64,000 bases of DNA from an uncultured bacterium (GCA_963848635.1 CAWKEA010000005.1:352585-416584); one strand, 5' to 3'; shown: positions 5,431 through 60,270, counted from the first letter of the stretch. The notes: generated by a model from the sequence alone, not told the origin. Made by a program: numbers and translations.

Positions 5431-5448
5431 ACAACACTAATAACACAA

Positions 5449-20960: not shown

Positions 20961-21040
20961 GATTTAAGATTGAAGATTGTAAGGTTTAAAGATTGTCGTT
21001 TTTGTCATTTTTTCAATCTTACAATTTTTCAATTCATTTA
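20961..21040. repeat. AT-rich intergenic spacer with short inverted repeat (ATTGTAAG / CTTACAAT)
   Basis: between rplE start and rplX stop. Confidence 0.4.
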
Positions 21041-22767: not shown

Positions 22768-22870
22768 TAAATTTAAAATGCAAAACTCAAAACGCAAAAC
22801 TGAAATGCTGCAATGCACGTATTTGTCTTTGAATTATGCTTTTGCATTTTGAGTTTTGACTTTTGAGTTA
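22768..22870. repeat. family-1 intergenic hairpin repeat; right arm encodes the C-terminal tail of rpsC
   Basis: AAAATGCAAAACTCAAAACGCAAAAC ... GCTTTTGCATTTTGAGTTTTGACTTTTGAG; rpsC stop codon lies inside the element (gaaTTAtgc) and 22837..22866 encode ...VKTQNAKA. Confidence 0.8.
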
Positions 22871-23526: not shown

Positions 23527-23640
23527 AATTAAAGTTAAAACTCAAAACGCAAAGTTCAAAACTAAATGCGCTATCAGAATTATTGTATTTTGAATTAAAG
23601 TTTTGCATTTTGAGTTTTGAGCTTTGAGTTTGCTTTCTCG
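23527..23640. repeat. family-1 intergenic hairpin repeat; right arm encodes the C-terminal tail of rplV
   Basis: AAAACTCAAAACGCAAAGTTCAAAAC ... AGTTTTGCATTTTGAGTTTTGAGCTTTGAGTTTGC; rplV stop at 23595 inside the element; tail ...KANSKLKTQNAKL. Confidence 0.8.
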
Positions 23641-25220: not shown

Positions 25221-25280
25221 AGGCACATTGACAAGAGCAAGCGGAAAAATAAAAATTAAATCGTTCAGTGATCGCGCCTC

Positions 25281-26580: not shown

Positions 26581-26600
26581 ATGTTTGATATCCGTACTTA

Positions 26601-27098: not shown

Positions 27099-27146
27099 AA
27101 TATTAAATTTGAGTTATACACAATGTCGTCTTGAATCATGCTATAC

Positions 27147-28091: not shown

Positions 28092-28147
28092 AAATTTTTA
28101 TTTCACCCAGTAGGCGACTCAATAGAGTCGTGTTCTGGACTAAATTG

Positions 28148-28876
28148 CTATTTCACATATTCCGCATCCGCGGAAAGCCTATTTTTTACCTTCACATCGC
28201 TGTCGATCGCGCCGTCCATAAGGCGGATGATGCGCTCGGAATGCTCGGCTGTGGCCGTTTCGTGCGTGATGAGAACGATCGTCTTGCCCTCTTTTTCATT
28301 TAATTTTTGAAGGATGGACATGATATTCTTGCCGGATTTACTATCGAGATTACCCGTCGGCTCGTCAGCGAAAATCACGTCCGGGTCAGTGACGAGGGCA
28401 CGCGCGATTGCCACGCGCTGCCGTTCGCCGCCGGAGAGCTCGCTCTGGTCATGGTTGAGTCGGTTGCCGAGGCCGACCGATTCGATCGCCTTCGTGGCTC
28501 GCTCGTTCCATTCATGTTCGGGAATATTGTCAGAATAGACGAGCGGCAATTTTACGTTCTCGAGCACGCTCGTGCGGGCGAGGAGATTGAAAGCCTGAAA
28601 GACAAAGCCGAGCTTTTGGTTGCGCAGATACGCCAATTCGTTCGAGTCATACGAAGTGATATTCTTGCCGTCAAAATGATATGTGCCAGACGTCGGCGTA
28701 TCGAGGAGGCCAAGGAGGTGGAGCAATGTCGATTTGCCAGAGCCTGACGGCCCCATGATGGCCATGAATTCGCCTTTGCGCACATTAAAGGTCACTCCGG
28801 CCAATGCGACTGTCGCCTCGCTGCCGTCGCTGTACGACTTCCTCAGATTTTTAACTTCTATTATGTTTTCTGCCAT
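28148..28876 (-). CDS. ABC transporter ATP-binding protein (MacB/LolD-type)
   Basis: Walker [10 protein letters not shown], signature [15 protein letters not shown], Walker [13 protein letters not shown]. Confidence 0.85.
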
Positions 28877-28885
28877 TGAAAAATG

Positions 28886-30431: not shown

Positions 30432-30517
30432 GCCGTTAGCCGACTATTTTTATTTCACTTTTTTAGGCAAAGAAAAAGCCGGGCTGGATCGCGCCAGCGC
30501 GGCTGTGACTGATAATT

Positions 30518-31804: not shown

Positions 31805-32063
31805 ACTATCTCCTTCGTTGTTTGTTGTTGTGCAGTATTGGTTGTAAAAGACCGACTCAAAGACTGCTTTTTTGCTTTGTGTCTGAATCGAACATTACTC
31901 GTAAGTATCAATGATGTCAAGGTGAACGAGTTGACAGAACTACTTTTACGCGCTAAAAAGGACTTAGAATTATCGCACAATCGCCGTTCCGAAAGGAATG
32001 GCTTTTTATTTCAAGAAAAAACCGCCGAGCTTGTGAAAGCCCGGCGATATGAGATTACGTAAT

Positions 32064-33437
32064 TCAGAATTCCAATTTGGTTTCCTTGAGCCTGCGAACG
32101 ACTTCGGCGATGACCGACCCATGGTCCGGCAGACCATATTCCGGCTGAGGAAATATCGTCACAGCCCAACGCAACCACGCATTGCCCGAGATCGTCACTG
32201 GCATGAGCGAGATACGCTTGTGCTGTCGGAGCCAAATAGTGCACTCGGTCGCATTCGAAAAGACGACGCCATCGGCCGATACGGGTGCTTTGGTCAGAAG
32301 GCACAGCCCTGCCTCAGGCATAGAGGCTCCAAATCCAGTTTCCGCAAGCCCCGCGATCAAGCCGCCGTGCAACTCATAATAATGGTTGCGCATGCTCACC
32401 GCAAACTCGGGATTCTTGAGGCACCAGAGCATTGAAGCGATGCTCGGTCCAAAGCCGCCGGAATCCTTTACATCAGTGATCTTGCGGATGGCCTTGATGA
32501 GGGTCGGGTGAGCGATCATCCATCCCATGCGCAATCCCGTGGCATTCCAACCCTTGCTCACGCTCTGCAAAACGATGCAACAGTGCTCCCAACCGGCAAT
32601 ATCGAGAACGCTCACGCTATCGTTATAGCGCAGATGGGTATATGCCTCGTCGACGACGACGATGACGTCGTTTTTCGTCGCCCACGCGATGAGGTTATCC
32701 CAGTCCGATAACGAGAACGTCGTACCAGTCGGGTTATGCGGGATGTTGAGATACAGCACTGTTCTCCTTAACCCGGCCGACGCCGATGCTTCAACGAGGT
32801 AGGTCATCCTACCGTAGTCGATATAGTAACGTCCACCAGACAAGACGAGAGGTATGTCCTCTATCTTCGCTTGCAAGCTATTTATATCGCTCTTCACGAC
32901 GGCGTAGCTCGGATTCGGGAAGAGCAGGAGCGTTTCGCCATCGAGCAGTAATGATGGTATGTATTCAGCCAGCGCCCGTTTGATCGAACCGGGAGAATAT
33001 TGGACCCAGTCTGGGGTGAATACCACATCTGAATAAGGGTGCATCATGTTCAAGAAATCAGCGATGGCTTCATGCGTGCCAGGGATGCCGTTATTGTCGG
33101 TATAGCGCGTCGCCTGAGGGTTCGAGCTATAATATTCCATCGCCGCTTCCATCGCCTCGAGAGGCATCTTTACCGTAGGATCGGCGACTGACAGGCAACA
33201 AAGCGCAGAAGAGGGATTACTAGGGATGCTTTGCATGGCCAACTCCCGCTCTGCGCTAAGAACCGCACTGAATGAATATCCCGTGCCTGGCTTGTCGAAT
33301 TCGGCGCCACCATAACGAGAAAGCATGTGCCGCCGCCAGAATGTATCAAGATCTGACATAATATGTTTAAGTTTTAAGTCAATGAACTGCATGGGTTCTG
33401 AGACCGATATGCGCCGGAAGAACCCGTTCCGAAGCAC
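32064..33437 (-). CDS. class I/II PLP-dependent aminotransferase (possibly LL-diaminopimelate aminotransferase-like)
   Basis: NPTG and SKGWNATGLRMGW lysine-motif region; true start probably an internal Met. Confidence 0.6.
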   Translation of the reverse strand: MLRNGFFRRISVSEPMQFIDLKLKHIMSDLDTFWRRHMLSRYGGAEFDKPGTGYSFSAVLSAERELAMQSIPSNPSSALCCLSVADPTVKMPLEAMEAAMEYYSSNPQATRYTDNNGIPGTHEAIADFLNMMHPYSDVVFTPDWVQYSPGSIKRALAEYIPSLLLDGETLLLFPNPSYAVVKSDINSLQAKIEDIPLVLSGGRYYIDYGRMTYLVEASASAGLRRTVLYLNIPHNPTGTTFSLSDWDNLIAWATKNDVIVVVDEAYTHLRYNDSVSVLDIAGWEHCCIVLQSVSKGWNATGLRMGWMIAHPTLIKAIRKITDVKDSGGFGPSIASMLWCLKNPEFAVSMRNHYYELHGGLIAGLAETGFGASMPEAGLCLLTKAPVSADGVVFSNATECTIWLRQHKRISLMPVTISGNAWLRWAVTIFPQPEYGLPDHGSVIAEVVRRLKETKLEF

Positions 33438-33551
33438 TTTCTGAACATCACCCTACAAAATATCCGATATAATGTCAAGAAAAACACGGGTCTTTGCCCG
33501 TGCCGTTCTTTTGTAAAAAATTTTGAATCGTTCAAACCGGCCTCCCTCTTC

Positions 33552-34400
33552 CTACTCTGCCTTCTTCTTGCCGACTTGTCTGCGCGAGACGATGAAGATG
33601 TTCGAGTATTTCTTTGGGGTGCGGGTCTTTTGACCCTTGCCGGCAGGCTTGCCCCAACGGGTCTTCAGACGGCGTAGACCGCGTCCGGTGCGTTGCTCGC
33701 CTCCGCCATACGGATGGTCCACAGGATTTTGAGCCGAGCCGCGGACTGTCGGACGGATGCCCATCCAGCGCGACCGTCCCGCTTTGCCGATAGTGACCAA
33801 ACGATTTTCGTCATTCGACACAGCGCCGATAGAAGCCCATGCAGTATCGATGATCTTGCGGATCTCGGTCGAGGGCATTTTTATGTGCGTATAGCCGGCG
33901 TCATTGGCGATGACTTGGGCAAAAGAACCAGCAGAACGGACGAGACGTGCACCCCCTTTTGGCTTTATTTCTATGTTGTATATAAAAGAGCCGACGGGAA
34001 TATTGCGGAGAGGCAGGCGATTTCCCGAAGAGATCTCCGCTTTTTCCGAGACGAGGAGCTGTGAGCCGACTTTGACGTCTTTTGGAAGGAGCACGTAGCG
34101 CCTTTCACCGTCAGTGAACTGAACAAGACCGATAAAGCCTGTGCGGAAGGGGTCATATTCGACAGTCTTCACGATAGCAGGCATGTCTTTTTTATCATAT
34201 TTGAAATCGACGAGGCGATAGAGCTTCTTATGACCGCCGCCCTGGTGGCGCACCGTGATACGGCCTTGGTTGTTTCGAGCGGCATCGCGCTTGAATCCGA
34301 CGGTCAACGGCTTGTAAGGCTTCCGAAACCGTCACATGATCCTTGAACGAGATCGTGGTCATATGCCGGCGCGATTTTGTGAATGGTGGGTAGTGTTTCA
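33552..34400 (-). CDS. rplB: 50S ribosomal protein L2 (frameshift near 34310 separates the first ~28 codons)
   Basis: N-terminus MKHYPPFTKSRRHMTTISFKDHVTVSEA read from 34400; remainder YKPLTVGFKRDAARNNQGRITVRHQGGGHK... in ORF 33552..34307. Confidence 0.85.
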
Positions 34401-34411
34401 TGTTAATTAAT

Positions 34412-35650: not shown

Positions 35651-36262
35651 TTATTTGGCCATGATCTCGAGCAGAGTGCCACGATGACCTGGAACAGCTC
35701 CCGAAAGATACAGTATGTTGGCTGCTTCGTCAATGTGAACGACCTTCAAATTCTTGACTGTGACGCGATCGCCGCCCATGCGGCCGGCCATGCGCATCTT
35801 CTTAGGCACTTTGTTGCGCAGACCTCCGCCGATGCTCCCTGGCTCGCGCTCGCTGTGCTTTTGGCCGTGGGTGCGAGGGCCCCCATGGAAGCCGTGCCTC
35901 TTGACCACGCCTTGGAATCCCTTGCCCTTTGAGATGCCGGATACCGAGACCTCATCGCCTTCCTTGAATTGAGCGAGCTCGATCTTGTCCCCGACCTTGA
36001 AAGGAGTGACATCGCCGACTCGGAACTCCTTTACCGCCTTGAACGATCCAAGATCCTTCCATTCGTCCTTTTGAGGCTTGTTGATGTTCTTTGTTTTGCG
36101 CGTGCCAGCGCCGATCTGGATGGCGGTATAGCCGTCAGAGTCCTTTGATTTGACACGGGTTATGACGTTCGGCGATACGAGGACTGCCGTGGCAGGATGA
36201 ACGATCCCGTCTTTATCGAAGAGTTGTGTCATATTCAGTTTTGTGGCAAGAATGAATTTCAT
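35651..36262 (-). CDS. rplC: 50S ribosomal protein L3
   Basis: GKGFQGVVKRHGFHGGPRTHGQKHSEREPGSIGG. Confidence 0.9.
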   Translation of the reverse strand: MKFILATKLNMTQLFDKDGIVHPATAVLVSPNVITRVKSKDSDGYTAIQIGAGTRKTKNINKPQKDEWKDLGSFKAVKEFRVGDVTPFKVGDKIELAQFKEGDEVSVSGISKGKGFQGVVKRHGFHGGPRTHGQKHSEREPGSIGGGLRNKVPKKMRMAGRMGGDRVTVKNLKVVHIDEAANILYLSGAVPGHRGTLLEIMAK

Positions 36263-36265
36263 GTT

Positions 36266-36273
36266 GGGGGGGG
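36266..36273. repeat. G8/C8 homopolymer 3 nt upstream of the rplC start codon
   Basis: minus strand reads CCCCCCCCAAC-ATG; occupies the expected Shine-Dalgarno position. Confidence 0.8.
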
Positions 36274-36356
36274 TAGAAGTAGAAAATAGAAGTAGAAATC
36301 AGAACGGATGCAAGCATGCTCGCATTATTCTGTTTTCTATTTCTATTTTCTCTGAT
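36274..36356. repeat. family-2 intergenic hairpin repeat (arms GAAGTAGAAAATAGAAG / CTTCTATTTTCTACTTC-like; loop with GCAAGCATGCTCGCAT)
   Basis: imperfect inverted repeat in the rpsJ-rplC spacer; homologous copies at 46318..46389 and 46826..46902. Confidence 0.75.
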
Positions 36357-36365
36357 CTGTATTTC

Positions 36366-36767
36366 TTACATCATCTTCACATCAATGTTCACGCCGGACG
36401 GGAGGCTCAGATTCGTTAACGCATCGATCACCTTTGGATTCGGGTTGATGATGTCGACAAGCCTTTTGTGGACACGCATCTCGAATTGTTCTCGAGCGTT
36501 TTTATGGACGAACGAGGAGCGGTTGACGGTGTACTTCTTTATCTCCGTCGGCAATGGGACTGGACCAAAGAATTCTGCGTCATACCTGGCCGCCGTGTCC
36601 ATTATCTGCTTCAGGCTGGCATCGAGGATCTTGTGCTCATAAGCGCGGATCCGGATCCGAAGCTTTGGCAATTCTGCCGCTTCGGCCGCTGCTTTCTTTG
36701 CGCGCGGCGCTTTGGTGACCGCCGACTTGGCAGGAGCCTCATTTTTAATTGTGTGTGTGGTTGGCAT
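36366..36767 (-). CDS. rpsJ: 30S ribosomal protein S10 (N-terminal Ala/Lys-rich extension)
   Basis: KLRIRIRAYEHKILDASLKQIMDTAARYDAEFFGPVPLPTE. Confidence 0.85.
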   Translation of the reverse strand: MPTTHTIKNEAPAKSAVTKAPRAKKAAAEAAELPKLRIRIRAYEHKILDASLKQIMDTAARYDAEFFGPVPLPTEIKKYTVNRSSFVHKNAREQFEMRVHKRLVDIINPNPKVIDALTNLSLPSGVNIDVKMM

Positions 36768-36777
36768 GGATTGCGGT

Positions 36778-37965
36778 TTACGCGACGACTTTCGTTACGA
36801 CTCCAGCGCCGACTGTCTTGCCTCCTTCACGGACTGCAAAGCGTTGCTTGTCCTCGAGGGCGACTGGTGCGACGAGTTTGACCTTGAAGGTGACTGTGTC
36901 GCCTGGCATGACCATCTCTACCTTTTCAGGCAATGTGACCTCGCCAGTGACGTCTGTCGTGCGGATATAGAACTGAGGCTTGTAACCGGTGAAGAATGGG
37001 GTGTGACGGCCTCCCTCTTCCTTTTTCAAAACGTAGATCTCTGCTTCGAATTCTGTGTGAGGCTTGACTGCGCCGGTCTTTGAGAGGACCATGCCGCGTG
37101 TGACGTCATCCTTGCCTGTTCCACGGAGCAGAAGCCCAGCATTGTCGCCAGCGAGGCCTTCCTTGAGCGATTTATTGAACATTTCGATGCCGGTGATGGT
37201 CGTCTTTGCGGTATCGCGGAAGCCGATGATCTCGACTTCCTCGCCTACTGAGATTTTTCCTCGTTCGATGCGTCCTGTGACGACGGTTCCGCGGCCTTCG
37301 ATCGAGAAGATGTCTTCGATCGGCATGAGGAACGGCTTGTCGACTTCACGGACAGGCTCTGGGATATAGGTATCGAGTGCGTTCATGAGATCGTCGATCT
37401 TTGAAACCCATTCCGCGTTGCCTTCGATAGCGCCGGTAGCTGAGCCGCGGATGACTGGGACACCCTTGCCGTCAAAGCCATTCTTTGTCAAAAGCTCGCG
37501 GACTTCCTCCTCGACGAGATCGAGAAGGTCTTTTTCTGGGACGAGGTCGCACTTGTTGAGGAAAACGAGGATCTTTGGAACACCGACTTGGCGAGCGAGG
37601 AGAACGTGCTCGCGAGTCTGTGGCATGACGCCGTCCATGGCTGAGACGACGAGAATGGCCCCGTCCATTTGGGCGGCGCCGGTGATCATGTTCTTGACAA
37701 AGTCAGCGTGGCCTGGGCAGTCGATGTGAGCATAGTGGCGCAGAGGTGTCTCATATTCGACGTGAGAGAGGGCGATAGTGACGGTCTTTGTCGCGTCACG
37801 AACTGTTCCGCCCTTTGTGATATCAGAATAAGCTTTGACTTCTGCAAGGCCTTTCTTTGATTGTACGACCAAAATAGACGCGGTGAGCGTAGATTTGCCG
37901 TGGTCGATGTGTCCGATAGTACCGACATTGACATGCGGCTTTGTGCGATTGAATTCTTTTGCCAT
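36778..37965 (-). CDS. tuf: translation elongation factor Tu
   Basis: [11 protein letters not shown]1 motif, [12 protein letters not shown]; 395 aa. Confidence 0.95.
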
Positions 37966-38113
37966 GATATTTTTGTTAGTGCTTTTTTATCATATTTCAG
38001 GCCAGACGGCCAAAAAATAGAACAAAAAAGATAATCGTGTAAAAAATTACTTGTTAAAGGTAGGCCTCTTTTGAGCAAAGGCATACTTAGCCAACGCAAA
38101 ATGCGTACTGGGC

Positions 38114-38142
38114 ATACTAGCAAATGGGCGTTCAGGTGTCAA
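38114..38142 (-). promoter_or_regulatory. candidate sigma70-type promoter for the tuf/S10 operon
   Basis: minus strand TTGACA-17nt-TAGTAT about 140 nt upstream of tuf. Confidence 0.4.
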
Positions 38143-38248
38143 ATTTTACAGCCATTTAATATTTTAGTAATAAAATAGCTACATCAAGTCCAAATTATGT
38201 TGATTGACAAGTTAATACATTTAAACCATCATTTGTATATCTAATAAT

Positions 38249-39287
38249 ATGTCGTTCAAGATATCATACCAAATAAAAGATAAAGACATCAGAAATCTAG
38301 AACTTATATCTAAAACTGATGGGTATTTACAAGTATTAAGAATGAACCCCGTATGGTCAACTTTGCTCGAAAAAGAAGCTAGGATAACGGAAGCGGTAAG
38401 TTCCATCGGAATAGAAGGAACGATAATTTCCATTGAGCAAGCAAACGCAATCACTGTTGGTGAAGAAAACGTACATGTTGGGGAAAAGGAAAAGAGAGAA
38501 TTTCTCGGCTATTATGAGTCATTAAACTATATTAGAGGTGAAATCGATAGCCCACTAACACTGCAATTACTCCTTAAAATCCATGGAAAGATTACAGCTG
38601 GTGATCCAAAAGCTTCTCCTGGCAAAATAAGAACTGATTTGAGGGCTGTCGCAAAAGATGGAAAAGTCATATACAAAGCACCTCCACCAGAACACCTCAG
38701 TTTTCTTTTAAGAAGCTTCATTGAATGGTTCAATAATACCGCTTCAGACAAGGCTATTTCACCAGTTATAGCGGCTGCAATATGTCATTTTTGGTTTGTA
38801 TGGATACATCCATTCTGTGATGGTAACGGGAAGAGTTGGAAGATTACTTACAACGTTTCTACTATTGAAAAAGAAGTCTGAGGGAGTTAAATATTTTGCT
38901 CTCTCAAATGATTACAATAAGGAAAAAGATGGATATTATGACTCTTTAAAAAAGACTAACGTATGCGATCCAGAGGTTCCATCAATGAATTTTGACAACG
39001 ACTTATCACTCTGGATAACTTATTTTATATATTCATACTTAGTTCAGATGGAAGATATAAAAGAGGTTACAAATCGGATATTACAATTGAATATAAAAAT
39101 TGAACATCTCAGAGAGGATGGCTTAATTACTTCAACTCACAACAAAGCACTCGCATTTTTATCATCAAGAAAAAAGACATCTTACCAAGAATTTGAAGGG
39201 GCACTTAAAATTTTCTGCTCCGAGAGTAAATCAAATATTAAAACCCCTCCGCTCAGCACGTATACTTGTCGAGGAACAGATAGGTAA
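38249..39287 (+). CDS. Fic/Doc family protein (frameshift inside the Fic motif near 38845)
   Basis: HPFCDGNG in ORF 38249..38881 continues as RVGRLLTTFLLLKKK in ORF 38796..39287, together forming HPFxDGNGRxxR. Confidence 0.65.
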
Positions 39288-41260
39288 AACCGTATGGTTT
39301 AAGTTAGGATCCCCAGAAGACGAATAACCTGCAGGACATTGGCTAGGATTAGTGTACGTAGTTGTTGGGTAAGGATAATTAGTAGGACTCATAACAGTAA
39401 AGTAATTGTCGCTGTAGTCGTAGGCTTGAAGCACTGGTTCCGGAACACAACCAACATAACCAGCAGGACAAGTCGTACCGGCAGGAAGCGAAGTTTGCAA
39501 GGTAGCATATATCTTGTCTTGTCCAAGATAATTCGTAGGCAGAACTACTTGGAACGACTTCAACCCTGTGGTGCCGTTTATCGAACCGCCCCCAAGCGAA
39601 TATCCATTGCTTAGATCGCCGTTACCATTTGAATTTTCCAAGTAAAGAGCAACGCCGCTAGTGGTGACTTTCGTCGGGTCTCCGGTGACATTAACTGTAA
39701 CTGTTTGGGTTGTTCCTGCTTGCCACACCTCTCCTCCATTCGGCGAGACGATGTTTATGTCAGGCAAGTTTGAAGTCTGGCTTGAAGTTATCGTGAACGT
39801 ATTGTCGCTCGAATCGCAATTGCTCGTGCCTGATTAGGCAGATTTGAACAGTGTACTGGCCGTCTGGAATCGATTGAGATGTGCCAGAATAATTCGTCGC
39901 TGTGCCCACATTCCAATTATATGAATTCTGATTGATCGGAATATTCGTGGCGATGGTATAAGGGGCATACGCGATCGCCGGACAAACCTGCGTCGTGCAG
40001 ACATACTTTTGAGTGATCTTCAGATCTGCATACGCTGCCGCGAAATAATACGGCGACGTCCATGTTATCTGTTGGTTCATGCCGCGAGCCCATACTTCTC
40101 CGCCATTCGGTGAGATGATACGGAGCGAGCCTGCAGTATTGCTGCTGCCAACAACGACCGTCGAGCTTGTCTGCGCCTGCAAACCAGAACTATTTCTCAC
40201 GGTAAAAGTGACTGTATAGGTACCAGCGCTCGAGTATGAATGGGTAAAGGTCGTGCTCTGATTGAACTGAGGCGAAGCAATGCCTGACACATATGCTGCA
40301 GTCGGATTAACCACATCTCCCCAATCCACAGAATAATTTAGGGTTCCATTCAAAGGATCAGTAGCATGCACCGTCCATGTCCCCGTTTGATTTACAGTGA
40401 GCGACGTCGGCGCATCTATGCCGCTTATGACGGGAGTTTGGCTGTTCGAAACGCTCGATGAAGAGATGGTAAAGTTGTTGTCGCTCTCGGCACACTGCGT
40501 GCTGTTGTTTACATTTGTCGGACATATTTGGATTTTGTATTGACCAGTAGTCGCTGTACCGCTGCAATATGAAGTTCCGTTAGAATTCGTGTACATGGTA
40601 GCAAGCGCTGGGCATCCGAAAGATTGAATATTTCCGACATTCCATACATACGAACCTGAATTCAGGCTTACTCCGCTCGCAATAGTTTGTGGTGCGAGGA
40701 CCGCTATCATGCAGCGCGGATTTGCTCCCGGCAACGCACACGCAGGCAGCGCATGCTCGAGCTTGATGTCTCCTGTTTGGTTGAGAATGTTTGAAAGATC
40801 CTGTCCAAGTAATATTTTGCGTCGTCCCCAAAGCCCACGCCTCGCCCCCATTCGGCGAAATCACGCGAAATGAAGTTCCAGAATTACCACCCTGGTTGCC
40901 TCCGTTACCATAATGACTGCTCCAATAGGCGCGAGTGATCGGTCCAAAAAACCCGTACGCCGGGAGACCCGCTGCGGTCTGATATGCTTCTACGGCAGCC
41001 ATCGTCTGAAAACCATAATATCCCTTTGTATTTGCACCGGAACTTATGGACGGTATGTTGTAGCCATTGGCGATGAGCCAAGTCTGTAAATTAGCAACAT
41101 CCTGACCTGTGTTGCCAAGGCGGAGATCGTTGTTGAAGGTGTAGGTTTGGGCCTCTGTTGTAGTGCCAACAACGCAAACGATTGCAAAAAAGAAACAAGC
41201 GAATATAAGCGATTTTTTCATGTTTGTATATTGGGTTATGCTTGATGACGAATGATTCAA
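39231..41260 (-). CDS. secreted protein with peptidoglycan-binding domain and repeated Kre9/KNH-like Ser/Thr-rich modules (two frameshifts, near 39815 and 40845)
   Basis: signal peptide; PG_binding_1-like LRLGNTGQDVANLQTWLIANGY...YYGFQTMAAVEAYQTAAGL; repeats (R/I)ISPNGGE(V/A)W..G..Q.ITW and GQY.(V/I)QIC across three overlapping ORFs. Confidence 0.55.
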
Positions 41261-41352
41261 GCAATTATTTCAGCCAAGCAAAGCTTAGCACTACCGAACA
41301 ATAAAGAAAAGCCCTAGTATAGGGCTTTTCAAAATGATATACCATTAGGTTC

Positions 41353-43521
41353 CTACTTCCCCCTTTCCGCGACGATCTCTTTTTCTATATTCGGCGGAAC
41401 GACGTCGTAGTGATCGAATTCCATAGTGGCAGAGCCTTGACCGGATGTCATTGAGCGGAGCGCTGTCGTATAGCCGAACATCTCTGACAGAGGGACTTTT
41501 GCGTGGAGGACCTTTGCCTGGCCGCGCTCAGTCATTTCTTCGATGGTACCGCGTTTTGACGAGATCGATCCTGTTATATCGCCCATGTATTTGTCCGGGA
41601 AGAGGACCTCGATCTTCATGATAGGTTCGAGGATGACAGGTCGAGCGCGCTTCGCGGCTTCTTGGAAAGCTTGCGATGCGGCGATCTTGTAAGCGATTTC
41701 AGATGAGTCGACATCGTGATATGAACCGTAGGTCAGCTCACATGAGATATTGACCATTGGGAAACCTGCGACAATGCCGCGAGCCATGGCTTCGTGCACG
41801 CCTTTTTCGACGGCTGGAATGAATTCCTGCGGAATGACGCCGCCTTTGATCGAGTTGACGAATTCAAAGTCGTCATAACGAGAGATATTCTTCGGAATCT
41901 TTGCGTCTTTTTCAAGAGGCTCCATCGGCTTGATGTTCAGTTTGACGTGACCGTACTGGCCCTTGCCTCCTGTCTGCTTGATATATTTGTGCTCCGCCTC
42001 TGCTGTGCCCATGATAGTCTCGCGATATGCCACCTGTGGCTCGCCTGTATTGGCTTCGACGCCGAATTCGCGCTTCATGCGGTCGACCATGATCTCGAGC
42101 TGGAGCTCACCGACGCCAGCGATGATAGTCTCGCCTGTTTCCTGATTGGATAGGACATGGAATGTTGGATCCTCAATCGTAAGTTTACGCAGAGCCAGGC
42201 CCATTTTCTCCTGGTCTGCCTTTGTCTTCGGCTCGATGCGGAGCGACACGACAGGTTCCATGAATTTGATGGCTTCGAGTGTGATCGGATTGTTCTCGTC
42301 GCAGAACGTGTCTGACGTGCGGGCGTCTTTCAAGCCGACTGCGGCGGCGATCTCGCCTGCAAAGACTTTCTTGACCTCTTCACGCTTGTCAGCCTGGAGA
42401 CGGACGATGCGGCCGAGACGCTCTTTCTTGCCCGTTCTGGAATTATAGATGTATGTTCCTGCCTCTATCGTTCCTGAATAGACTCGAAAGAACGTAAGCG
42501 CTCCGACGAACGGGTCGTTTTGCAATTTAAAGGCAAGCGCGCAGAAAGGATCGGAATCAGAAGGATGGCGTTCGATTTCTTCTCCCGTGTCAGTATTCTT
42601 GCCTTTTGTGGCGGGCATATCCAATGGCGATGGCAAATAGTCGACGACAGCATCCAAAATGAGCTGAACGCCGCAGTTTTTGAGTGCTGAACCGGTGAAG
42701 ACCGGGAAGATCTTGTTGTCGATGACTGCTTTTCTCGCTGTAGCCTTGAATTCTTCGATGCTGACTTCCTTGCCCTCGAGGAATTTCTGCATGACTGCAT
42801 CGTCATATTCGACGACTTTTTCGAACATCTCCGTGCGATATTTCTTTGCGTCAGCGAGCATATTCTCCGGGATCTCCTTTTCGACGATCTTGCTTCCCAT
42901 TTCCCCTTCAAAATAATATGCTTTCATCTGGAGAAGATCGACAACGCCCTTATGCTCGCCTTCGAGACCGATAGGCAACTGGAAACGCACTGCGTTCTTG
43001 TTGAGGCGTTCAAGGATGGATTTATATGAATTCTCAAAAGAAGCGCCCATGCGGTCGAGCTTGTTGATGAAGCAGAGGCGTGGCACTTTTGCCTCGTCGG
43101 CATAGCGCCAGTTGGTCTCGGATTGAGGTTCGACGCCTGCGACTCCGTCAAAGACGACGACAGCGCCGTCCAAAACGCGCAACGACCTCTTGACCTCGAC
43201 GGTAAAGTCGATGTGTCCTGGGGTGTCGATGATATTGAAACGGACTTTCTTTGAAAAATCGGGCTGCCCTTCCTTCGTCAGGGTCTTCGACATGTACGTC
43301 GGATTCCAGAAACAAGTGATAGCTGCGGCGGTGATCGTGATGCCGCGCTCGCGCTCCTGTTCCATCCAGTCCGTCGTCGTATTCCCGTCATGGACCTCGC
43401 CGATCTTGTGGGTCATGCCGGTGTAATACAAAATGCGCTCCGATGTGGTCGTCTTGCCAGCGTCGATGTGAGCGATGATGCCGAAATTTCGTACTTTGTC
43501 GAGTGAATAGTCGCGGTTCAT
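41353..43521 (-). CDS. fusA: translation elongation factor G
   Basis: [16 protein letters not shown]1, [13 protein letters not shown]; 722 aa. Confidence 0.95.
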
Positions 43522-43893
43522 GATAAGTTAATGATTAATCAAGCTTTTCAGGGCTATTTTTCTTAATAAATTAAAGAATACTTTCTTTCGTCTTCGCTCG
43601 GACGATATATCCGCTAGCGGCTACATCGATCCTCGCTAGCCGAAATAAAAAAGCGTCGAGGCTTTTAGGTAAGGCGATTGTACAGGAAATGAGCGGAAAA
43701 TGCAAAAATCACCTCGGCAATCGCTTTGATTCTTTTTTCTTGCCCTTGTATTTAGCTAAAATCCTTTCTGAGACAAGATTAAAAGATTTCTATCAGTTCT
43801 TCATGCAAATGATCGAACTTATCAATATTCGATTCATCGGACCATTTATTGCCTTTGGCAAATTCTTTGACCAAAATCTGTGCTTGCGATATT

Positions 43894-44337
43894 TTAATTA
43901 CTTTTTTCATAAAAATGGTTTAGAAAATCAGTGAAACTTTTTACTAGATCATCTGGCTTACTGAAAAGTGCGACTGTATAATTGTCTTTTGAGACACCTC
44001 TCAACAATTTTGATACGTTGCTAAGGTCCATAACACCGACCATGGTCGGTGTTTTACGAAGCTCTGTCATATAACCGATCTCATAACCTAGACCTGTTCC
44101 TGGATAATCGCCTAACGCTAGCAAGCAATCCGCAGACTTTAAACATTCAATGTCGTAACCATAGACCTCTTTCGGTTCTGGATTCTCCTTGATTGCAGAA
44201 AGAAAATCTATTACATTATACCCTTTTCTTTTGAGTTCCTCTTTCACATTATCCAGTAACGAAGCAAAGGCTTGTTTTTGCTCGCTTGGAACATGTGTGA
44301 GCGCGCAAGCGACATATACTTTAATAGAGGCTTTCAT
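43894..44337 (-). CDS. nucleoside 2-deoxyribosyltransferase-like protein
   Basis: KVYVACALT and LGDYPGTGLGYEIGYM resemble the NDT-family Rossmann-like fold motifs (D..GTafE.G.a). Confidence 0.5.
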   Translation of the reverse strand: MKASIKVYVACALTHVPSEQKQAFASLLDNVKEELKRKGYNVIDFLSAIKENPEPKEVYGYDIECLKSADCLLALGDYPGTGLGYEIGYMTELRKTPTMVGVMDLSNVSKLLRGVSKDNYTVALFSKPDDLVKSFTDFLNHFYEKSN

Positions 44338-44397
44338 GACGTCATGGTATCACTTCTTTAATTCAGCGCAATTATTTTGAAATCCGACCTCTGTAGA

Positions 44398-44943
44398 TCA
44401 CTTTTCGACATTAAACCCCATCTTCCCTTCTTCTTTGACTGGCTCAGCCGTCAATTTCTTGAGCGCGCCGTAGATGTTGACCAGATGTTGGCTGTGCTTT
44501 CTCTGCTCACGCTCGAGCTCGGCAATTTTTTGAGCAAGATCTTTGTTTGTGGCAAGCAATTCACGTATTCTGATAAATGCACGGATGATTGATATATTCA
44601 TTTCCACTGCATGCCTGTTTTTCAGAACCGATGATAGCATTGCTACGCCATGCTCAGTAAAAGCATAAGGTTTAAAACGAGGATCTCTGTGTTTTTGGGA
44701 ACCGGTCACAAATTGTGACCGGTTGATTTGCTCAAATTCATCACCCGAAAGCTGAAACATGAAATCTGTAGGGAAACGATCCATATTCCTTTTAACTGCC
44801 TGATTCAAGACTTTCGTCGATACGCCGTAGAGTTCTGCCAAGTCTTTGTCGAGTATTACTTTTACCCCTCGAACGATAAAAATCCGTTGGACTATCCGCT
44901 CAACAGGAATTTCAATTTTTACAAGAGATTTTTCTTCTTTCAT
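44398..44943 (-). CDS. ORF6N (KilA-N-like) domain DNA-binding protein
   Basis: RGVKVILDKDLAELYGVSTKVLNQAVKRNMDRFPTDFMFQL matches the ORF6N domain; C-terminal coiled coil. Confidence 0.6.
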   Translation of the reverse strand: MKEEKSLVKIEIPVERIVQRIFIVRGVKVILDKDLAELYGVSTKVLNQAVKRNMDRFPTDFMFQLSGDEFEQINRSQFVTGSQKHRDPRFKPYAFTEHGVAMLSSVLKNRHAVEMNISIIRAFIRIRELLATNKDLAQKIAELEREQRKHSQHLVNIYGALKKLTAEPVKEEGKMGFNVEK

Positions 44944-45074
44944 TCCTTAATTATATCAAGCAATAATAGTTTTAGATTGCAATTTTCAACCTCAAAAGTG
45001 CACATTATGTGGAAAATCTTGATGTTTCAATTTGCGATATCAGAACCTATCACAATCTGCGATAGGTTCAAATT

Positions 45075-45620
45075 TCAATTCCCCATCCAAATCGCCCAGT
45101 TCAGGTATCCGGCAAAAGTGACCCAGATGATATAGGGCAAGAGAAGCCACGCGGCGGCTTTCGAGACGCGATAGAAATTTATGATGAGGTAGAGAATGGA
45201 GAACCATAGGGCAAGCAGTTCAAAGAAAGCAAGCCCGGGCTGGTGCAGGCCAAAAAATATGTACGACCACAAAACATTCAAGACAAGCTGGACCGCAAAT
45301 ATCGCGATGATGTTCTGCCTCTGCCAATCGCCGCTCCAAAATCGGCGCGTCCAAGGATTCCAGCCGCGATCGCGATCGGTGAGCATTTGGTTCTGCACTT
45401 TCCAATCCTTTTTCCAAACAACATAAAGCGCGATGCCCATAAGGATAAAAAGCATCGTCCACACCGGACCAAAGACCCATGCTGGCGGATTTAAAGACGG
45501 CTTTGCGAGAGTCGCGTACCAAGAGCCGATCGAAGGCAAAGTGACGAGCGAACCGACCCAGCCAGCGAAGAGAGGGACGAAAAGCGAAACGATGAGCTTT
45601 AACCAATCAGATTTCTTCAT
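45075..45620 (-). CDS. tspO: TspO/MBR family tryptophan-rich sensory protein
   Basis: five TM helices, Trp-rich (PAWVFGPVWTMLF, NVLWSYIFF); start taken at MKKSDWLK rather than the listed upstream extension. Confidence 0.7.
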   Translation of the reverse strand: MKKSDWLKLIVSLFVPLFAGWVGSLVTLPSIGSWYATLAKPSLNPPAWVFGPVWTMLFILMGIALYVVWKKDWKVQNQMLTDRDRGWNPWTRRFWSGDWQRQNIIAIFAVQLVLNVLWSYIFFGLHQPGLAFFELLALWFSILYLIINFYRVSKAAAWLLLPYIIWVTFAGYLNWAIWMGN

Positions 45621-45750
45621 GGAAAAAGTATAGCACATACTACTAGCCTTTCTTGAGGCAGGCGGAGATACAAAAGCAGATCTTATACAAGAAAAACCCT
45701 TTCGGGACCTTTTCTTTTCTGAAATTTTGGCGATATGAGGCTTACCAGGA

Positions 45751-45847
45751 CTTACCAGGCAAAATGGGCGCACCCATGCGGGCATGCTCCATTTTGCAGC
45801 TGGAATTGCTTCGCTATCGCTCGCAATTACCAGGCAAAATGGGCAAA
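45751..45847. repeat. short direct duplication of the rpsG 3' end (TTACCAGGCAAAATGGGC x2, about 80 bp apart) plus inverted partial copy
   Basis: 45751..45767 and 45831..45847 identical 17-mers; CCATTTTGCAGCTGG at about 45798 is a reverse-complement-like copy. Confidence 0.6.
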
Positions 45848-46297
45848 TGCCTTGTTGGCTTCGGCCATCTTGTGCATGGTCTCGCGCTTCTTGACGGCTT
45901 CGCCTTCGTTCTTTGACGCGGCAATGATCTCGTCTGCGAGCTTTTCGTGCATCGGCTTGCCTTTCTTGTTGCGAGCGGCTTCGACGATCCATTTCATCGA
46001 GAGAGCGCTCGAGCGCGCCGGGCGCACTTCGCGCGGAACCTGGTAGTTCGCACCGCCGACGCGGCGTGAGCGGACTTCCATGGCAGGAGTCGTGTTCTTG
46101 AGGGCCGCCTCGAAGAGCTCGACTGGATTCTCTACTTTTGCCTTTTCTTTCAAAAGGTCGAACGTGCTATAGACGATCTCGCGGGCCGTGCTCTTCTTGC
46201 CTGAATCCATGCAGTAATTGATGAACTTGCTTATTTTGACTGATTCATAGCGCGAGTCAGGGCGGATGATCGGTTTATTCTTTATTTTGCGTCTCAT
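45827..46297 (-). CDS. rpsG: 30S ribosomal protein S7
   Basis: [17 protein letters not shown]...[13 protein letters not shown]. Confidence 0.9.
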
Positions 46298-46317
46298 GAT
46301 TTTGTTTAGAATTAGAT

Positions 46318-46389
46318 ACTAGAAGTAGAAAATAGAAGGAATTCAAGCAGTTTTGGAAAATTCTGATTCTATTTTCTATTTCTACTTTC
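46318..46389. repeat. family-2 intergenic hairpin repeat (rpsL-rpsG spacer)
   Basis: GAAGTAGAAAATAGAAGG ... TTCTATTTTCTATTTCTACTTTC. Confidence 0.75.
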
Positions 46390-46393
46390 TTTA

Positions 46394-46810
46394 TTATTTA
46401 GCCGCTTTCGGCTTCTTGTTGCCGTACTGACTGCGACCTTTTCTGCGGGCTTCGACGCCTGCGCAGTCGAGAACTCCGCGAACGACTGAATAGCGCAGAC
46501 CGACGTCCTTGACGCGGCCTCCGCGAAGGAGGACGACTGAGTGTTCCTGGAGGTTGTGGCCCATGCCGGGAACGTAGGCTGTGACTTCCATGCCGTTCGA
46601 AAGGCGCACGCGGGCGATCTTGCGGATGGCGGAGTTAGGCTTTTTCGGAGTCTTTGTCGTGACTTTGATGCAAACACCGCGTTTGAAAGGCGCTGGGAAG
46701 AAGCTCGGACGGTTCTCGATCGAGTTGAATGTGCGGGTGAGGGCGACAGACTTCGACTTTCTCTTGAAGCTGACGCGGCTCTTCTTTGTGAGCTGGTTTA
46801 TTGTTGGCAT
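46394..46810 (-). CDS. rpsL: 30S ribosomal protein S12
   Basis: [10 protein letters not shown]...[18 protein letters not shown]. Confidence 0.9.
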
Positions 46811-46825
46811 TGATTAAAGGATTAA

Positions 46826-46902
46826 GAGAATAGAAGTAGAAAATAGAAGGGGTGCAAGAATGCTCGCATCCTCCTTATTCCATTTTCTATTTCTACTTTC
46901 TG
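46826..46902. repeat. family-2 hairpin repeat (upstream of rpsL)
   Basis: GAATAGAAGTAGAAAATAGAAGG-GGTGCAAGAATGCTCGCATCC-...CCATTTTCTATTTCTACTTTC. Confidence 0.75.
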
Positions 46903-47045
46903 TTGGTTCCGCCTGACTTTTTCACTCGATCTCCCCTTGAGATGTGAGGAGATGAATTACTCATGCGAAACCGTTATTAATTACGTGCTTCTTTCTAAAG
47001 AAGCAGTGGGGGCAGTCTACTTTATTTTAGGGGAAATGGCAAATT

Positions 47046-48152
47046 TTACCTCAGTTCCTGGACAAGCGCCGCGATGCTCTTTGAATACATATCGAAATAA
47101 TCTTGTTCCGTCCTTTTATCTTTCTCCAGCGTATTGACGACGTCCATATGATACCTGCTCATCATAAGAGATGAACGGATCACTCCCAGCCTCATGCCGG
47201 CTTTTATCATTTCAACCGAATCCGGATACATGTTTGAGCCGACTTCCAACATCGCTTTGTCCAAGATATTTTGGAAAGAGGTCGAAGACCACGCGCGAGC
47301 GCGCAGATTTCCGTAATCATACATAATCGCTACGACTGGATCGTCGACTCTGCCGACCCATTCAAAATCCAAAAGCTCAAAATCTCCGTTCTGATGCTTG
47401 TAGACATTGTCTATCTGCATATCGGCGTGGACAAGATAAAAGCCTTTATTGGTCCTTGAATTTATCACTTGAATAAAATCATCTTCAAGAATCTGCATGA
47501 GCCTGGCGCGTACATTCGGCATTCCAGCATAAAGAACGAGCAATTCTTCCACACTTTTTGTGGTTTCATTTCCGTCTTTCGATCTATGTATGATCTCTGT
47601 GCCGAGCAATTTGGAAAATTCTTTTTTGTAGAATCTGATGCTCGAATGGATCAACCTGGTCAGCTTCAGCGTGCTTTGCCGTATGCCGAATCCTGCCTGA
47701 TGGAATGAACAGATGACCTTTACGAGCTTTTGTATCTGCTCTTCAGTGCAGCTCCCATAAAAAGCCGGGTCATCATGCATGAATCCGAATCCGTTCCCGT
47801 CTTCGCGAGTCTCAAAGACAGCATAAGGGACCGGCGGCTTGAAAGAATGTTTTATCACCTCCAGAGTCGGCGAATGAAAATCTTTATCGTCATGGAGTGC
47901 GGACGCGATCTTCACTTGCCTTTCAAATAATTTGAAAGTCCTTTGGGTGCCGTCGAGCATGATTTTGATAAAGCGCTTCTGCCTTCCACCCGCCTCAACC
48001 CGTTCAAGGACCATATTCCCATACCTAACCCCTTTTTGATTGCCCTTTAACAGACTTTGTACATCTGCATCTTCAAAAATGAATCCTTCCGCCTTCAGGA
48101 TCAAAGAAATCCTGTCATAGTTTGCTTTTCGAATAAAAAATCTTTTGAACAT
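47046..48152 (-). CDS. aminoglycoside-phosphotransferase/protein-kinase-like fold protein
   Basis: catalytic-loop-like LVHADMQIDNV and DFEW (DFG-like) motifs. Confidence 0.5.
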   Translation of the reverse strand: MFKRFFIRKANYDRISLILKAEGFIFEDADVQSLLKGNQKGVRYGNMVLERVEAGGRQKRFIKIMLDGTQRTFKLFERQVKIASALHDDKDFHSPTLEVIKHSFKPPVPYAVFETREDGNGFGFMHDDPAFYGSCTEEQIQKLVKVICSFHQAGFGIRQSTLKLTRLIHSSIRFYKKEFSKLLGTEIIHRSKDGNETTKSVEELLVLYAGMPNVRARLMQILEDDFIQVINSRTNKGFYLVHADMQIDNVYKHQNGDFELLDFEWVGRVDDPVVAIMYDYGNLRARAWSSTSFQNILDKAMLEVGSNMYPDSVEMIKAGMRLGVIRSSLMMSRYHMDVVNTLEKDKRTEQDYFDMYSKSIAALVQELR

Positions 48153-50543: not shown

Positions 50544-51044
50544 TTATTTTTGGCGAAGCTCAATCGGCGCATTGTCCGCAAAAGATGTCGCGATAACGTC
50601 TGCGCGCTCGTTGTATTCGACGCCGCTATGACCGAGGACGACTTTCCACTCGATATTTTTTCCATTGGCCGCCTTTAACAATTCCTGCCAAAGATCCTGA
50701 TTCAGAACGGGCTTTTTTGCCGCCGTGCGCCAATTTTTAGCCTGCCAGCCCTTTATCCATAAGGTCATCCCCTTGACCACATACTCCGAATCAGCGATGA
50801 GATCGATCTTTGAGCCGGCCGGCACTGCCTTCAGCCCTTCGATGGCCGCTTTCAATTCCATCCTATTATTCGTCGTATGGTCTTCCCTGCCCCCGATCTC
50901 CTTGACTGCATGACCGCTATTTTCTGCTCCCGTCCCTCCATTTTGATTTTTGATTTTTGAATTTTGAATTAGTATCGCCGCCCAGCCACCCGGTCCTGGA
51001 TTGCCTCGCGACGAACCGTCGGTATATATGGTGTATTCTTTCAT
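50544..51044 (-). CDS. rnhA: ribonuclease HI (with an in-frame low-complexity insertion QNSKIKNQN)
   Basis: TDGSSRGNPGPGGWAAIL ... TTNNRMEL ... IADSEYVV ... LGHSGVEYNERAD. Confidence 0.8.
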   Translation of the reverse strand: MKEYTIYTDGSSRGNPGPGGWAAILIQNSKIKNQNGGTGAENSGHAVKEIGGREDHTTNNRMELKAAIEGLKAVPAGSKIDLIADSEYVVKGMTLWIKGWQAKNWRTAAKKPVLNQDLWQELLKAANGKNIEWKVVLGHSGVEYNERADVIATSFADNAPIELRQK

Positions 51045-58627: not shown

Positions 58628-60270
58628 TTAACTCTTCCCCCAGTTCTTTCCAATGCTACAGCCGACGACGAGCGGCACGCCCTTTGTTTCATCGAGGGAG
58701 ACGACTGTCTCCATTATCTTCTGTATCTCCGGTACGACCTTGGTCAAGATGTCATCTCGTACTTCAAGCACAAGCTCGTCATGCACTTGGAGGAGCAAGT
58801 AAACCGAATTCTCAAACTTGTTCGTTCTTTATATATTCAAATATCTTGACCATGGCGAGCTTGACGATGTCGGCTTCGGTGCCTTGGATCGGCGCATTTA
58901 TTGCCATGCGCTCGGCGCTGGCACGGATAAATGGGATAGGTGAAGCGATGTCGCCAAAATAGCGCCGGCGGCCAAAGAGAGTCTCGGTGTATCCTTTCCT
59001 CTTTGCTTCTGCTTTGACCGAATCGAGGTAGCGCGCGAGGCCGCTGAATGCTTGAAAATAATGGTTGTAGAATTCTTGCGCTTCGGGACGCGTGCCGCCC
59101 AAATTCTGCGCGCAAAGCGTTCACCCCCATGCCGTACATGACGCCGAAATTGATGACTTTCGCCTTGCGGCGCATCTCGGGCGTGATCTGGTCAGCCGGC
59201 ACGCCGAAGACCTTTGCGGCAACCTCCCTATGCACATCGCGGCCGCCTTTAAAGATCTTCATGAATTCCTCGTCATTGGCCAAAAATGCTGCGATGCGCA
59301 ATTCGATCTGCGAATAGTCGAGCGATACGAGAGAGAAGCCTTTTTCTGCGATGAAAGCGTCGCGGATGCGGCGGCCCTCTTCTGTTTGGATCGGTATATT
59401 CTGCAGATTCGGATTATTGGATGACATGCGGCCGGTCACCGCGCCCGTCTGATCGAACGTCGCATGCAGACGATCGTTGTCATCGAGAAGCGGCGGGATC
59501 GCGTCGATATACGTGCCGACAAGCTTTGCCAACTGCCGATAGTCGAGGATCTTTTTTACGATAGCATGCTCGGACAGCTTTAAAAGCTCGGACTCTTTTG
59601 TCGATCGGGCGCCGCCTGCAGTCTTCTTCATCCTGGGCACGCTCAACTGCAGCTTGTCGAAGAGAATGTCGCCGAGCTGTTTCGGTGAATTGATGTTGAA
59701 TTCTTGGCCAGCGAGCTGATAAATACCTTTTTCAAGCTCGCGAATCTTGCCATTATATTCCTTTGACAATTTTTCCATATATGCGCGGTCGATCTTTATC
59801 CCGCGCTCTTTCATGGCGTCGAGGACAGGTATAAGAGGAAGCTCGACCTCGTCATAAACTCGCGACAAGTTGCGTTGCTTTATCCCTTCAAGCACTGCTT
59901 TTTTCGCATCATCCCAATCTTTTGCATTCGTTATCGCGAGGACGTCCTCGTAGGTTGGACCTGTGTAGTTCGAATCGAGAAGCCAAGCGCCGACAGCGAT
60001 CGGACGGAGCTCCTCAAGCGGCACTGGCGATTCGATGGCTTTCTTCTTCTCTTTTTTAGCTGGAAGATCCTCGTCATATTCGAGGGTTGCAGAATTTTCG
60101 GCTTTTCCTTTACTTTTATTTTTTATATTCCCTTCATCTTTGAGTTTTGAATTTTGAGTTTTGACATTCTCACCCCTTCCACCACCGCTTTCACCCTCGC
60201 TCCAAGCGTCCTGAACTCGAGCTCTTTGAACAAAGTTTCTATTTTGCCGAAGTCGAAATCCTCGCGCCAT
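58628..60270 (-). CDS. polA: DNA polymerase I polymerase domain, Taq-like without active 3'-5' exonuclease domain (frameshifts near 59100 and 58805)
   Basis: motif A SLDYSQIELR, motif B RRKAKVINFGVMYGMG, then out-of-frame continuation ...LFGRRRYF...INAPIQGTEADIVKLAM... and final LLQVHDELVLEV...GKNWGKS. Confidence 0.75.

Follow-up and report, generated by a model that had tools for sequence, protein, structure and literature searches.

The locus considered here raises a simple question: what are three similar hairpin repeats doing in front of the ribosomal-protein genes rplC, rpsG and rpsL? They lie in a stretch of 64,000 nucleotides (nt) of DNA from an uncultured bacterium (GCA_963848635.1, CAWKEA010000005.1:352585-416584), which will be called the window, with positions counted from its first letter. 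The closest relatives by proteins S12 and S3 are uncultured Patescibacteria/Paceibacterota. An earlier note on this DNA, made from the sequence alone, had named the repeats family 2 (F2) and proposed either autoregulatory or processing RNA structures, or a family resembling repetitive extragenic palindromic (REP) sequences and MITEs (miniature inverted-repeat transposable elements). According to our best reading, such gene gaps are filled across Patescibacteria by a fast-changing class of palindromic repeats and not by a conserved regulatory RNA. The element is repeated in the genome, it is sited between a stop codon (or a leader) and the next start codon, it is gained, lost or replaced among close relatives, and its units also occur in solo arrays. 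As for the F2 hairpins themselves, we give somewhat better than an even chance to their being small palindromic DNA repeats, similar to REPs, MITEs or Rickettsia palindromic elements (RPEs), with foldback architecture, local spread and fast turnover. In the window they show a preference for ribosomal-protein junctions.

Hairpins of the window

F2 occurs in three copies, at the positions and of the size (about 75-85 bp) given before. Each copy contains an exact match to the 17-mer GAAGTAGAAAATAGAAG. When up to three mismatches were allowed, the window yielded eight matches to it, namely the six F2 arms and two overlapping registers, against 0.21 expected, and none of 100 shuffles reached eight. 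A scan of reference genomes with the same 17-mer returned at least 118 single chance matches in unrelated taxa. The arms of the copies are near-identical and their flanks unrelated. Pfam assigned the adjoining genes to S12, S7, S10 and L3, in agreement with the earlier note; all are on the minus strand:

36275..36358, minus strand: F2 hairpin in the rpsJ/rplC spacer, 33 pairs, apex UGCGAGCAUGCUUGCA, rplC AUG 18 nt past the stem end
46314..46390, minus strand: F2 hairpin in the rpsL/rpsG spacer, 27 pairs, loop different from the other two copies; the stem begins 3 nt past the rpsL stop codon and the rpsG AUG lies 16 nt past the stem end
46825..46901, minus strand: F2 hairpin in the rpsL 5' leader, 32 pairs, apex UGCGAGCAUUCUUGCA, rpsL AUG 14 nt past the stem end
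35651..36262, minus strand: rplC (L3)
36366..36767, minus strand: rpsJ (S10)
45827..46297, minus strand: rpsG (S7)
46394..46810, minus strand: rpsL (S12)

On the gene (minus) strand, that is, in mRNA, each copy folds into one hairpin with a GC content of 27-36% and single-base mismatches; the predicted energies are -33.7, -22.6 and -32.2 kcal/mol (z = -9.3, -5.1 and -6.4). Inverted-repeat arms are 92% complementary at 36281-36304/36328-36351 and 88% at 46314-46337/46367-46390. The left arms contain 78-82% purines and the right arms 18-29%; whichever strand is read, purines prevail in the 5' arm and pyrimidines in the 3' arm. Both this composition and the pairing of loops had been described correctly: the copies at 36.3 and 46.8 kb have in common the loop core TGCAAG(A/C)ATGCTCGCAT and a small palindromic apex, UGCGAGCAU(G/U)CUUGCA, and the loop at 46.3 kb diverges. 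One refinement concerns the arms, which are built of units AGAAAGT, AGAAAT and AGAAAAT with only loose periodicity (fixed-period test, p 0.014-0.2).

The whole window was examined by sliding-window folding and by an inverted-repeat scan, and four further hairpins of like design were found besides the three F2 copies:

23537..23625, minus strand: family 1 (F1) hairpin, arms of NNCAAAA heptamers, rplV/rpsC; its 5' arm forms the rplV stop codon and the ~10 codons before it
22775..22863, minus strand: F1 hairpin, rpsC/rplP; its 5' arm reaches into rpsC, supplying the last codons and the stop codon
21283..21368, minus strand: F1 hairpin, rplN/rplX
20969..21033, minus strand: family 3 (F3) hairpin, 8-nt units AUUGAAAA, rplX/rplE

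Arm periodicity is significant for F1 at 7 nt and for F3 at 8 nt (at most one of 2000 shuffles matched the observed value) and weak for F2. The earlier note had called F2 distinct from family 1. This holds at the level of sequence, but families 1, 2 and 3 are clearly one kind of element. All seven hairpins stand immediately 5' of ribosomal-protein start codons and are extragenic or overlap gene ends, the F1 copies occupying three junctions within 2.3 kb and the F2 copies three junctions of the str/S10 region. Thus counted, hairpins are present at 7 of 16 ribosomal-protein junctions and at none of the ~59 other junctions of the window (Fisher p = 5.8e-6).

Strong hairpins with U-rich 3' arms and further U-rich sequence downstream could be transcription terminators or attenuators within operons, which we hold to be very unlikely. 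A terminator scan of the window called none of the seven, while ordinary short GC-rich terminators exist in other window spacers (e.g. 41306-41330 and 5440-5479). The AU-rich stems (in F2 27-33 bp with a GC content of 27-36%) are far longer than those of intrinsic terminators. Moreover, with seven terminators the essential operons could be read only by means of an antitermination system dedicated to them.

Turnover among relatives and copies outside ribosomal operons

We compared the same junctions in loci of relatives, cited here by their numbers. In L119 and L123-L128, whose S12 is 96-99% identical, a hairpin is again located 5' of rpsL, between a conserved leader and the final ~10 nt ahead of the AUG, both as in the window. 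The arms, however, are made of other families of units (GATTCAAG, AGTCCATAAAGT, AAGTTAAAAGT and CCGAGTT), and the apex remains TGCRAGCATKCTYGC. When the window is compared with L125 or L123, the arms are 26-52% identical, where shuffled arms give 41±15%. Because the third codon positions of rpsL are 78-82% identical in the same comparison, it can be inferred that arms turn over faster than by point substitution.

Other junctions differ in occupancy as well. The rpsL/rpsG spacer holds a hairpin, with differing arms, in the window, L125, L123, L124 and L119, and is empty (9-21 nt) in L126, L127 and L120/121. At rpsJ/rplC, L126 has the same flanks as the window and a similar apex; its arms are the GACTTTAAGGACTTTATAGACTT family, which is found 5' of rpsL in L123, L127 and L128. 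F1-type arms occur at rpsH/rplF in L125 and at rplD/rplW in L147. In L206 (S3 94% identical), rplV/rpsC, rplN/rplX and rplX/rplE are empty (1-8 nt), all three being filled in the window, and L208 (92%) has in common with the window a decayed F1 hairpin at rplV/rpsC. Conversely, the rpsS/rplV junction is tight in the window (6 nt), and L209 carries there, at 9500-9620, a textbook clean hairpin of TTCCAAA/TTCAAAG units (-38.7 kcal/mol). The F1 hairpins are not assembly artefacts, since the same ones are present in L205, an independent 2-kb assembly 95.5% identical to the window.

These comparisons bear directly on the autoregulatory reading of the earlier note, in which the leader or spacer would be bound by S7, S12, L3/L4 or another operon product through mimicry of its rRNA site. 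In E. coli, S7 targets the rpsL-rpsG spacer; the position of the 46.3-kb hairpin matches this site, and two copies flank rpsL. However, one sequence family precedes three unrelated genes (rpsL, rpsG and rplC), its arms are unconserved at 96-99% S12 identity, and the spacer is empty in other close relatives. Comparison with known leader motifs gave nothing either: at the gathering threshold, Rfam recognized only two tRNAs in the whole window, and scans of 45800-47100 and 36200-36850 up to an E-value of 10 returned only far-sub-threshold miRNA- or snoRNA-like matches and no ribosomal-protein leader. RNAalifold, run on an alignment of the orthologous sites, found no common structure (0 pairs); the arms do not align, and for this reason covariation analysis of the orthologous hairpins is impossible. 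Of all the explanations considered, we find this one the least credible.

The leader upstream of the 46.8-kb hairpin is a separate matter. The segment 46903-46970 (minus strand; …GAGUAAU…GAGUGAAAAAGUCAGGCGG…) recurs 5' of rpsL in many Patescibacteria loci (L125-L135). It has no Rfam match and is a candidate for an undescribed S12-operon leader motif, the F2 hairpin being placed between it and the start codon. Further upstream lies one more feature:

47014..47042, minus strand: promoter-like site TTGCCA-17-TAGACT 5' of the rpsL leader, a consensus match only

If this promoter is used, the 46.8-kb hairpin would be part of a 5' untranslated region of ~200 nt.

Arm units are not restricted to hairpins. 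Two solo arrays of F1 heptamers were detected in coding genes of the window:

50941..50968, minus strand: array TTCAAAATTCAAAAATCAAAAATCAAAA in rnhA, in frame, encoding IQNSKIKNQN; a 15-mer in common with the rplN/rplX arm
60138..60165, minus strand: array GTCAAAACTCAAAATTCAAAACTCAAAG in polA, exactly at the overlap of the 5'-exonuclease and polymerase frames

The polA array is likewise in frame and in sense orientation, and an exact 15-mer of it occurs in an F1 hairpin arm. In L125, recJ contains solo arrays of KIKIQDSGFKIQEK and GATTCAAG units (sense, in frame); rnhA, too, contains a solo array, and it carries an insertion of 16 aa when compared with its ortholog in the window. In L172, a direct array of GATTTAA units stands alone 5' of rpsG, with no inverted arm. 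Hairpins of the same families were also present in non-ribosomal spacers (L175 1171-1269, between sod and comEC; L186 943-1089; L126 4589-4739). It was thus the REP/MITE-like proposal of the earlier note that gained from the comparison: several families per genome, presence or absence at orthologous junctions of close relatives, one arm family at different junctions depending on the genome, solo half-arrays in genes, and copies outside ribosomal operons.

Several observations on the surroundings can be added. A more conventional MITE-like repeat, an inverted-repeat element of ~135 nt (CTATGAATTACGAAAT…ATTTCGTAATTCAAGA), occurs twice on one contig (L181 1804-1959 and 5593-5737). Some window genes look split or frameshifted, namely polA (58837-61112), a Mur ligase gene (53449-54771, two open reading frames) and the N-terminus of rplB (34308-34411, in another frame); they may represent true pseudogenes, slippage at repeats, or assembly indel errors. 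S10 (36366-36767) has an Ala/Lys-rich N-terminal extension of ~35 residues ahead of its Pfam domain. The genes of elongation factors EF-Tu and EF-G are situated between the rpsJ-rplC and rpsL-rpsG loci, and the ribosomal-protein cluster is broken by blocks of unrelated genes (window 24400-33500, 38200-40900 and 43900-45000). The block between rpsS and rplB encodes FtsX/MacB, ABC, HlyD and DUF3800 proteins, a decarboxylase and an aminotransferase; Fic and PKD proteins are encoded between tuf and fusA, and ORF6N and nucleoside deoxyribosyltransferase between fusA and rpsG. Cargo at the same places differs in relatives (in L119 RhuM, MazG, SLFN helicase, Fic and holin; in L208 RhuM, between rplP and rplN). 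The window hairpins are not located at the borders of these foreign blocks.

In four relatives, rpsS is preceded by a conserved promoter-like sequence, TTGACT…TAAGAT, after which come a GC-rich hairpin and a U run:

L206, 2130-2272: rpsS-upstream element
L207, 2230-2462: rpsS-upstream element
L208, 1-134: rpsS-upstream element
L209, 9028-9145: rpsS-upstream element

The loop of this hairpin shows compensatory changes, and it might attenuate the S10 operon's second half, which is detached. In L125 (18706-18785), the palindrome TCTAATTGAGAATGATTCTCAATTAGA occurs twice 5' of rpsN and resembles a Fur/Zur-type operator.

Palindromic repeat or selected RNA shape

If the hairpins are palindromic DNA repeats, the following model could account for them. 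The architecture is that of two inverted arms, each a loose tandem array of 6-8 nt units, around a short apex. Such an element would be inserted in the very short gaps that separate stop from start codons in translation operons, or would grow there. Spread over short distances might proceed by non-reciprocal copying, either gene conversion or some form of transposition, and arm sequences might change by slippage of units together with template switching or exchange between the two arms. Once transcribed, the insert of 77-84 nt is expected to fold on itself into an AU-rich stem of 27-33 bp, at the base of which the upstream stop codon and the next start codon would be adjacent. The insert would be tolerable in tight operons that lack Shine-Dalgarno sequences, because this self-folding keeps stop and start together and leaves positions -18 to -1 open. 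Any effects on mRNA, such as a block to 3' exonucleases, supply of an RNase III substrate or tighter translational coupling, would then be side effects, possibly co-opted.

The start regions of the window are compatible with this. None of the 17 translation genes has a Shine-Dalgarno sequence in the 25 nt upstream that were inspected, and 15 of them have C at -1 (YCAUG). The mean probability of being unpaired over -18 to -1 ranges from 0.31 to 0.74 where a hairpin is present and from 0.45 to 0.95 where there is none, and we predict from these folds that the start region is about as accessible in either case.

Nevertheless, the hairpins might be intercistronic RNA elements selected for shape alone, serving as RNase III sites, as 3'-end stabilisers that split long transcripts, or as devices coupling stop to start. 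We regard this as unlikely, though it is the main rival. The lack of Shine-Dalgarno sequences would suit a coupling device, and the F2 stems (27-33 pairs) suffice for RNase III, whose substrates have ~20 bp or more of near-continuous double-stranded RNA; no rnc gene was present among the window open reading frames scanned. The enrichment at ribosomal-protein junctions of the window and the retention of a hairpin while its arm sequence is swapped also speak for selection of shape, as does the breadth of the phenomenon. Spacer lengths have a bimodal distribution in the 79 Patescibacteria loci where rpsL and rpsG form a pair, with about half of the spacers at 21 nt or less and 28 at 45 nt or more. 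Around 20 of the long spacers are hairpins with at least 17 Watson-Crick pairs, and nearly all of these have quasi-periodic arms, with units such as CGAAT, ATAAAGTT, CTAAAAC, ACGAAT and TTAGGC; the same junctions thus hold hairpins of unrelated sequence in many lineages. Among 35 junction hairpins, stems span the whole spacer; their median start lies 2 nt short of the end of the upstream stop codon and their median end 15 nt before the AUG (~10 nt at rpsL/rpsG).

Against selection for shape stands, first, dispensability, as the junctions of close relatives can be empty (1-21 nt). Second, the fold of the mRNA strand is systematically weaker than that of its complement (26 of 36 hairpins, p = 0.011), and the mRNA shows no preferential retention of G·U pairs (63 sense-strand A·C mismatches against 31 G·U pairs). 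Since the A·C excess and the weaker sense fold mirror the sense strand's general A>T and C>G skew, they provide no evidence for function on either strand, and a role of the strand opposite the mRNA, considered on account of the A·C excess, was dropped for the same reason. Third, F1 has its 5' arms within the upstream coding sequence, so that they are melted in each round of translation. Fourth, unit arrays are found solo in coding genes, and hairpins of the same families in non-ribosomal spacers. Fifth, a geometry reaching from stop to start is a trivial outcome when a palindrome is inserted into a very short spacer. Finally, a cross-locus test of junctions with a loose inverted-repeat criterion showed no significant enrichment (63/295 against 34/211, p = 0.17), although this test is noisy, as it includes terminators and chance repeats and the loci were picked around rpsL.

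A broader variant would make the hairpin a lineage-wide cis element of Patescibacteria, defined by geometry: a long AU-rich hairpin that bridges a ribosomal-protein stop codon and the next start, or closes a leader, and that enforces termination-reinitiation coupling or RNase III processing without Shine-Dalgarno sequences. Arms would evolve in concert within a genome and be replaced between genomes, and the repeats in coding genes would be a spill-over of arm renewal. We consider this doubtful. It should be kept in mind that descent from palindromic repeats and selection for shape are not mutually exclusive.

Several observations weigh against palindromic repeats as the explanation. F2 was found only three times, being absent from all other loci fetched and from viral contigs; the F1 core was likewise missing from the viral contigs searched. 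Neither a transposase nor a REP-associated tyrosine transposase (RAYT) nor any other mobility gene was detected by Pfam among the open reading frames of the 64 kb, and no insertion sequence (IS) or transposase was seen in the window or beside copies in the fetched loci (~0.9 Mb searched). No clear or consistent target-site duplication is visible; TAA stands at both ends of the rpsL/rpsG hairpin in the window and in L124, but the left TAA is the rpsL stop codon. The apex TGCRAGCATKCTYGCA is kept across genomes though arms differ, and the F1 hairpins of L205 differ from those of the window no more than synonymous sites do (3/178 against 15/497, ~3%). Confinement to ribosomal-protein junctions in the window, and the refilling of the same junctions in distant lineages (the ~20 of 79 rpsL/rpsG spacers), could mean selection and not tolerance or targeting.

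The arms, short direct-unit arrays in inverted orientation, also call to mind sites of binding or recombination acting at the DNA level; examples would be iteron arrays for a DNA-binding protein, uptake sequences, or attC-like recombination sites on a folded single strand. Here too the structure persists through changes of sequence, and the two strands fold unequally well, which is also true of attC. This asymmetry is nonetheless explained by background base skew, units differ among close relatives with no candidate co-varying protein, and cassette organisation is lacking. Integron attC sites in particular were rejected, given that RYYYAAC...GTTRRRY cores in that order are absent from F2 (the reverse order was seen in L145) and that Pfam scans of the window found no integrase. 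A DNA site of any of these types is accordingly improbable.

Known repeats and the meaning for Patescibacteria

A full-text literature search found no description of such hairpins in Patescibacteria. Better-known systems were compared with them. The REP, BIME and REPIN sequences of proteobacteria are similarly short, imperfect extragenic palindromes, often between co-transcribed genes and with several families per genome. In REPINs, two inverted units form one long hairpin; REP turnover between strains is fast, and mRNA stabilisation is a known side effect. Yet a REP is a single unit of 20-35 nt, whereas the arms described here are tandem arrays of 6-8 nt units, with a handful of copies in 64 kb, no RAYT seen in the window, a Patescibacteria host, and a confinement to ribosomal-protein junctions within the window. 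RPEs are also selfish palindromes of a reduced genome that occupy spacers and, in frame, genes, where they add surface loops. They insert as whole palindromes of 100-150 bp, in contrast to the single arms in rnhA, polA and recJ, and there is no sequence similarity.

Operon MITEs (Correia/NEMIS of Neisseria, ERIC, RUP) are comparable in being inverted repeats of ~100-150 bp that are transcribed within operons as long hairpins, and Correia hairpins are RNase III substrates. Their terminal inverted repeats are defined, and they come with TA duplications and a parent IS family; nothing of the kind is visible here. By analogy, the RNase III sites of phage T7 early mRNA and the 3' inverted repeats of chloroplast mRNAs might also be compared, being non-terminating intercistronic hairpins that act as processing sites or protect upstream RNA. 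They are, however, conserved, single-copy and functional, and the resemblance drawn here, from sequence alone, is one of possible working. Foldback (FB) transposons of Drosophila have inverted arms of tandem sub-repeats in variable number, a likeness of architecture only, as FB elements are eukaryotic and kilobase-sized. The stem-loop arrays called TIGR, which give the guide RNAs of Tas proteins and are known in Patescibacteria, were considered and rejected: the present elements are single hairpins in ribosomal-protein operons, with no RUGAUGA/CUGA pair of box C/D motifs and no Nop-domain open reading frame in the Pfam scans of the window.

The nearest published parallel is provided by direct repeats of the heptamer TAACTGA in Beggiatoaceae, cyanobacteria and Bacteroidetes (MacGregor 2015, PMC4679880). 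These are located a few nt 5' of start codons without a ribosome-binding site, including those of ribosomal-protein operons (L3, S4, fusA); their origin is unknown, and a mobile origin is suspected (PMC4679880). Both systems have tandem units in front of such starts, the 3' ends of the window hairpins being 6-18 nt from the AUG, and the direct GATTTAA array of L172 resembles the TAACTGA repeats. But TAACTGA is one fixed unit in direct orientation, whereas the units found here (NNCAAAA, AGAAA(A)T, ATTGAAAA and others) vary by genome and are mostly paired with an inverted array.

The repeats have practical consequences. They break short-read assemblies, as is evident from a 596-nt contig that ends within the hairpin 3' of rpsL (L123) and an 874-nt contig that begins within the hairpin 5' of rpsL (L124). 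Gene callers are misled as well: by reading through the hairpin 5' of rpsL, they predict an S12 of 220-230 aa that is really 138 aa long (P0004, i.e. L119 504-1166, and P0007).

Genomes of Patescibacteria are tiny and streamlined and are usually described as repeat-poor, and their ribosomal-protein block is a standard marker for phylogeny and binning. Within this block, up to a quarter of the sampled lineages carry palindromes of 60-135 nt that change faster than synonymous sites, and their unit arrays are also written into RNase H, RecJ and DNA polymerase I. If the hairpins prove to be selected, they would offer a testable model for translational coupling in operons without Shine-Dalgarno sequences. 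Taken together, the palindromes in the ribosomal-protein block and the arrays in proteins point to an undescribed process that generates or spreads repeats in Patescibacteria.

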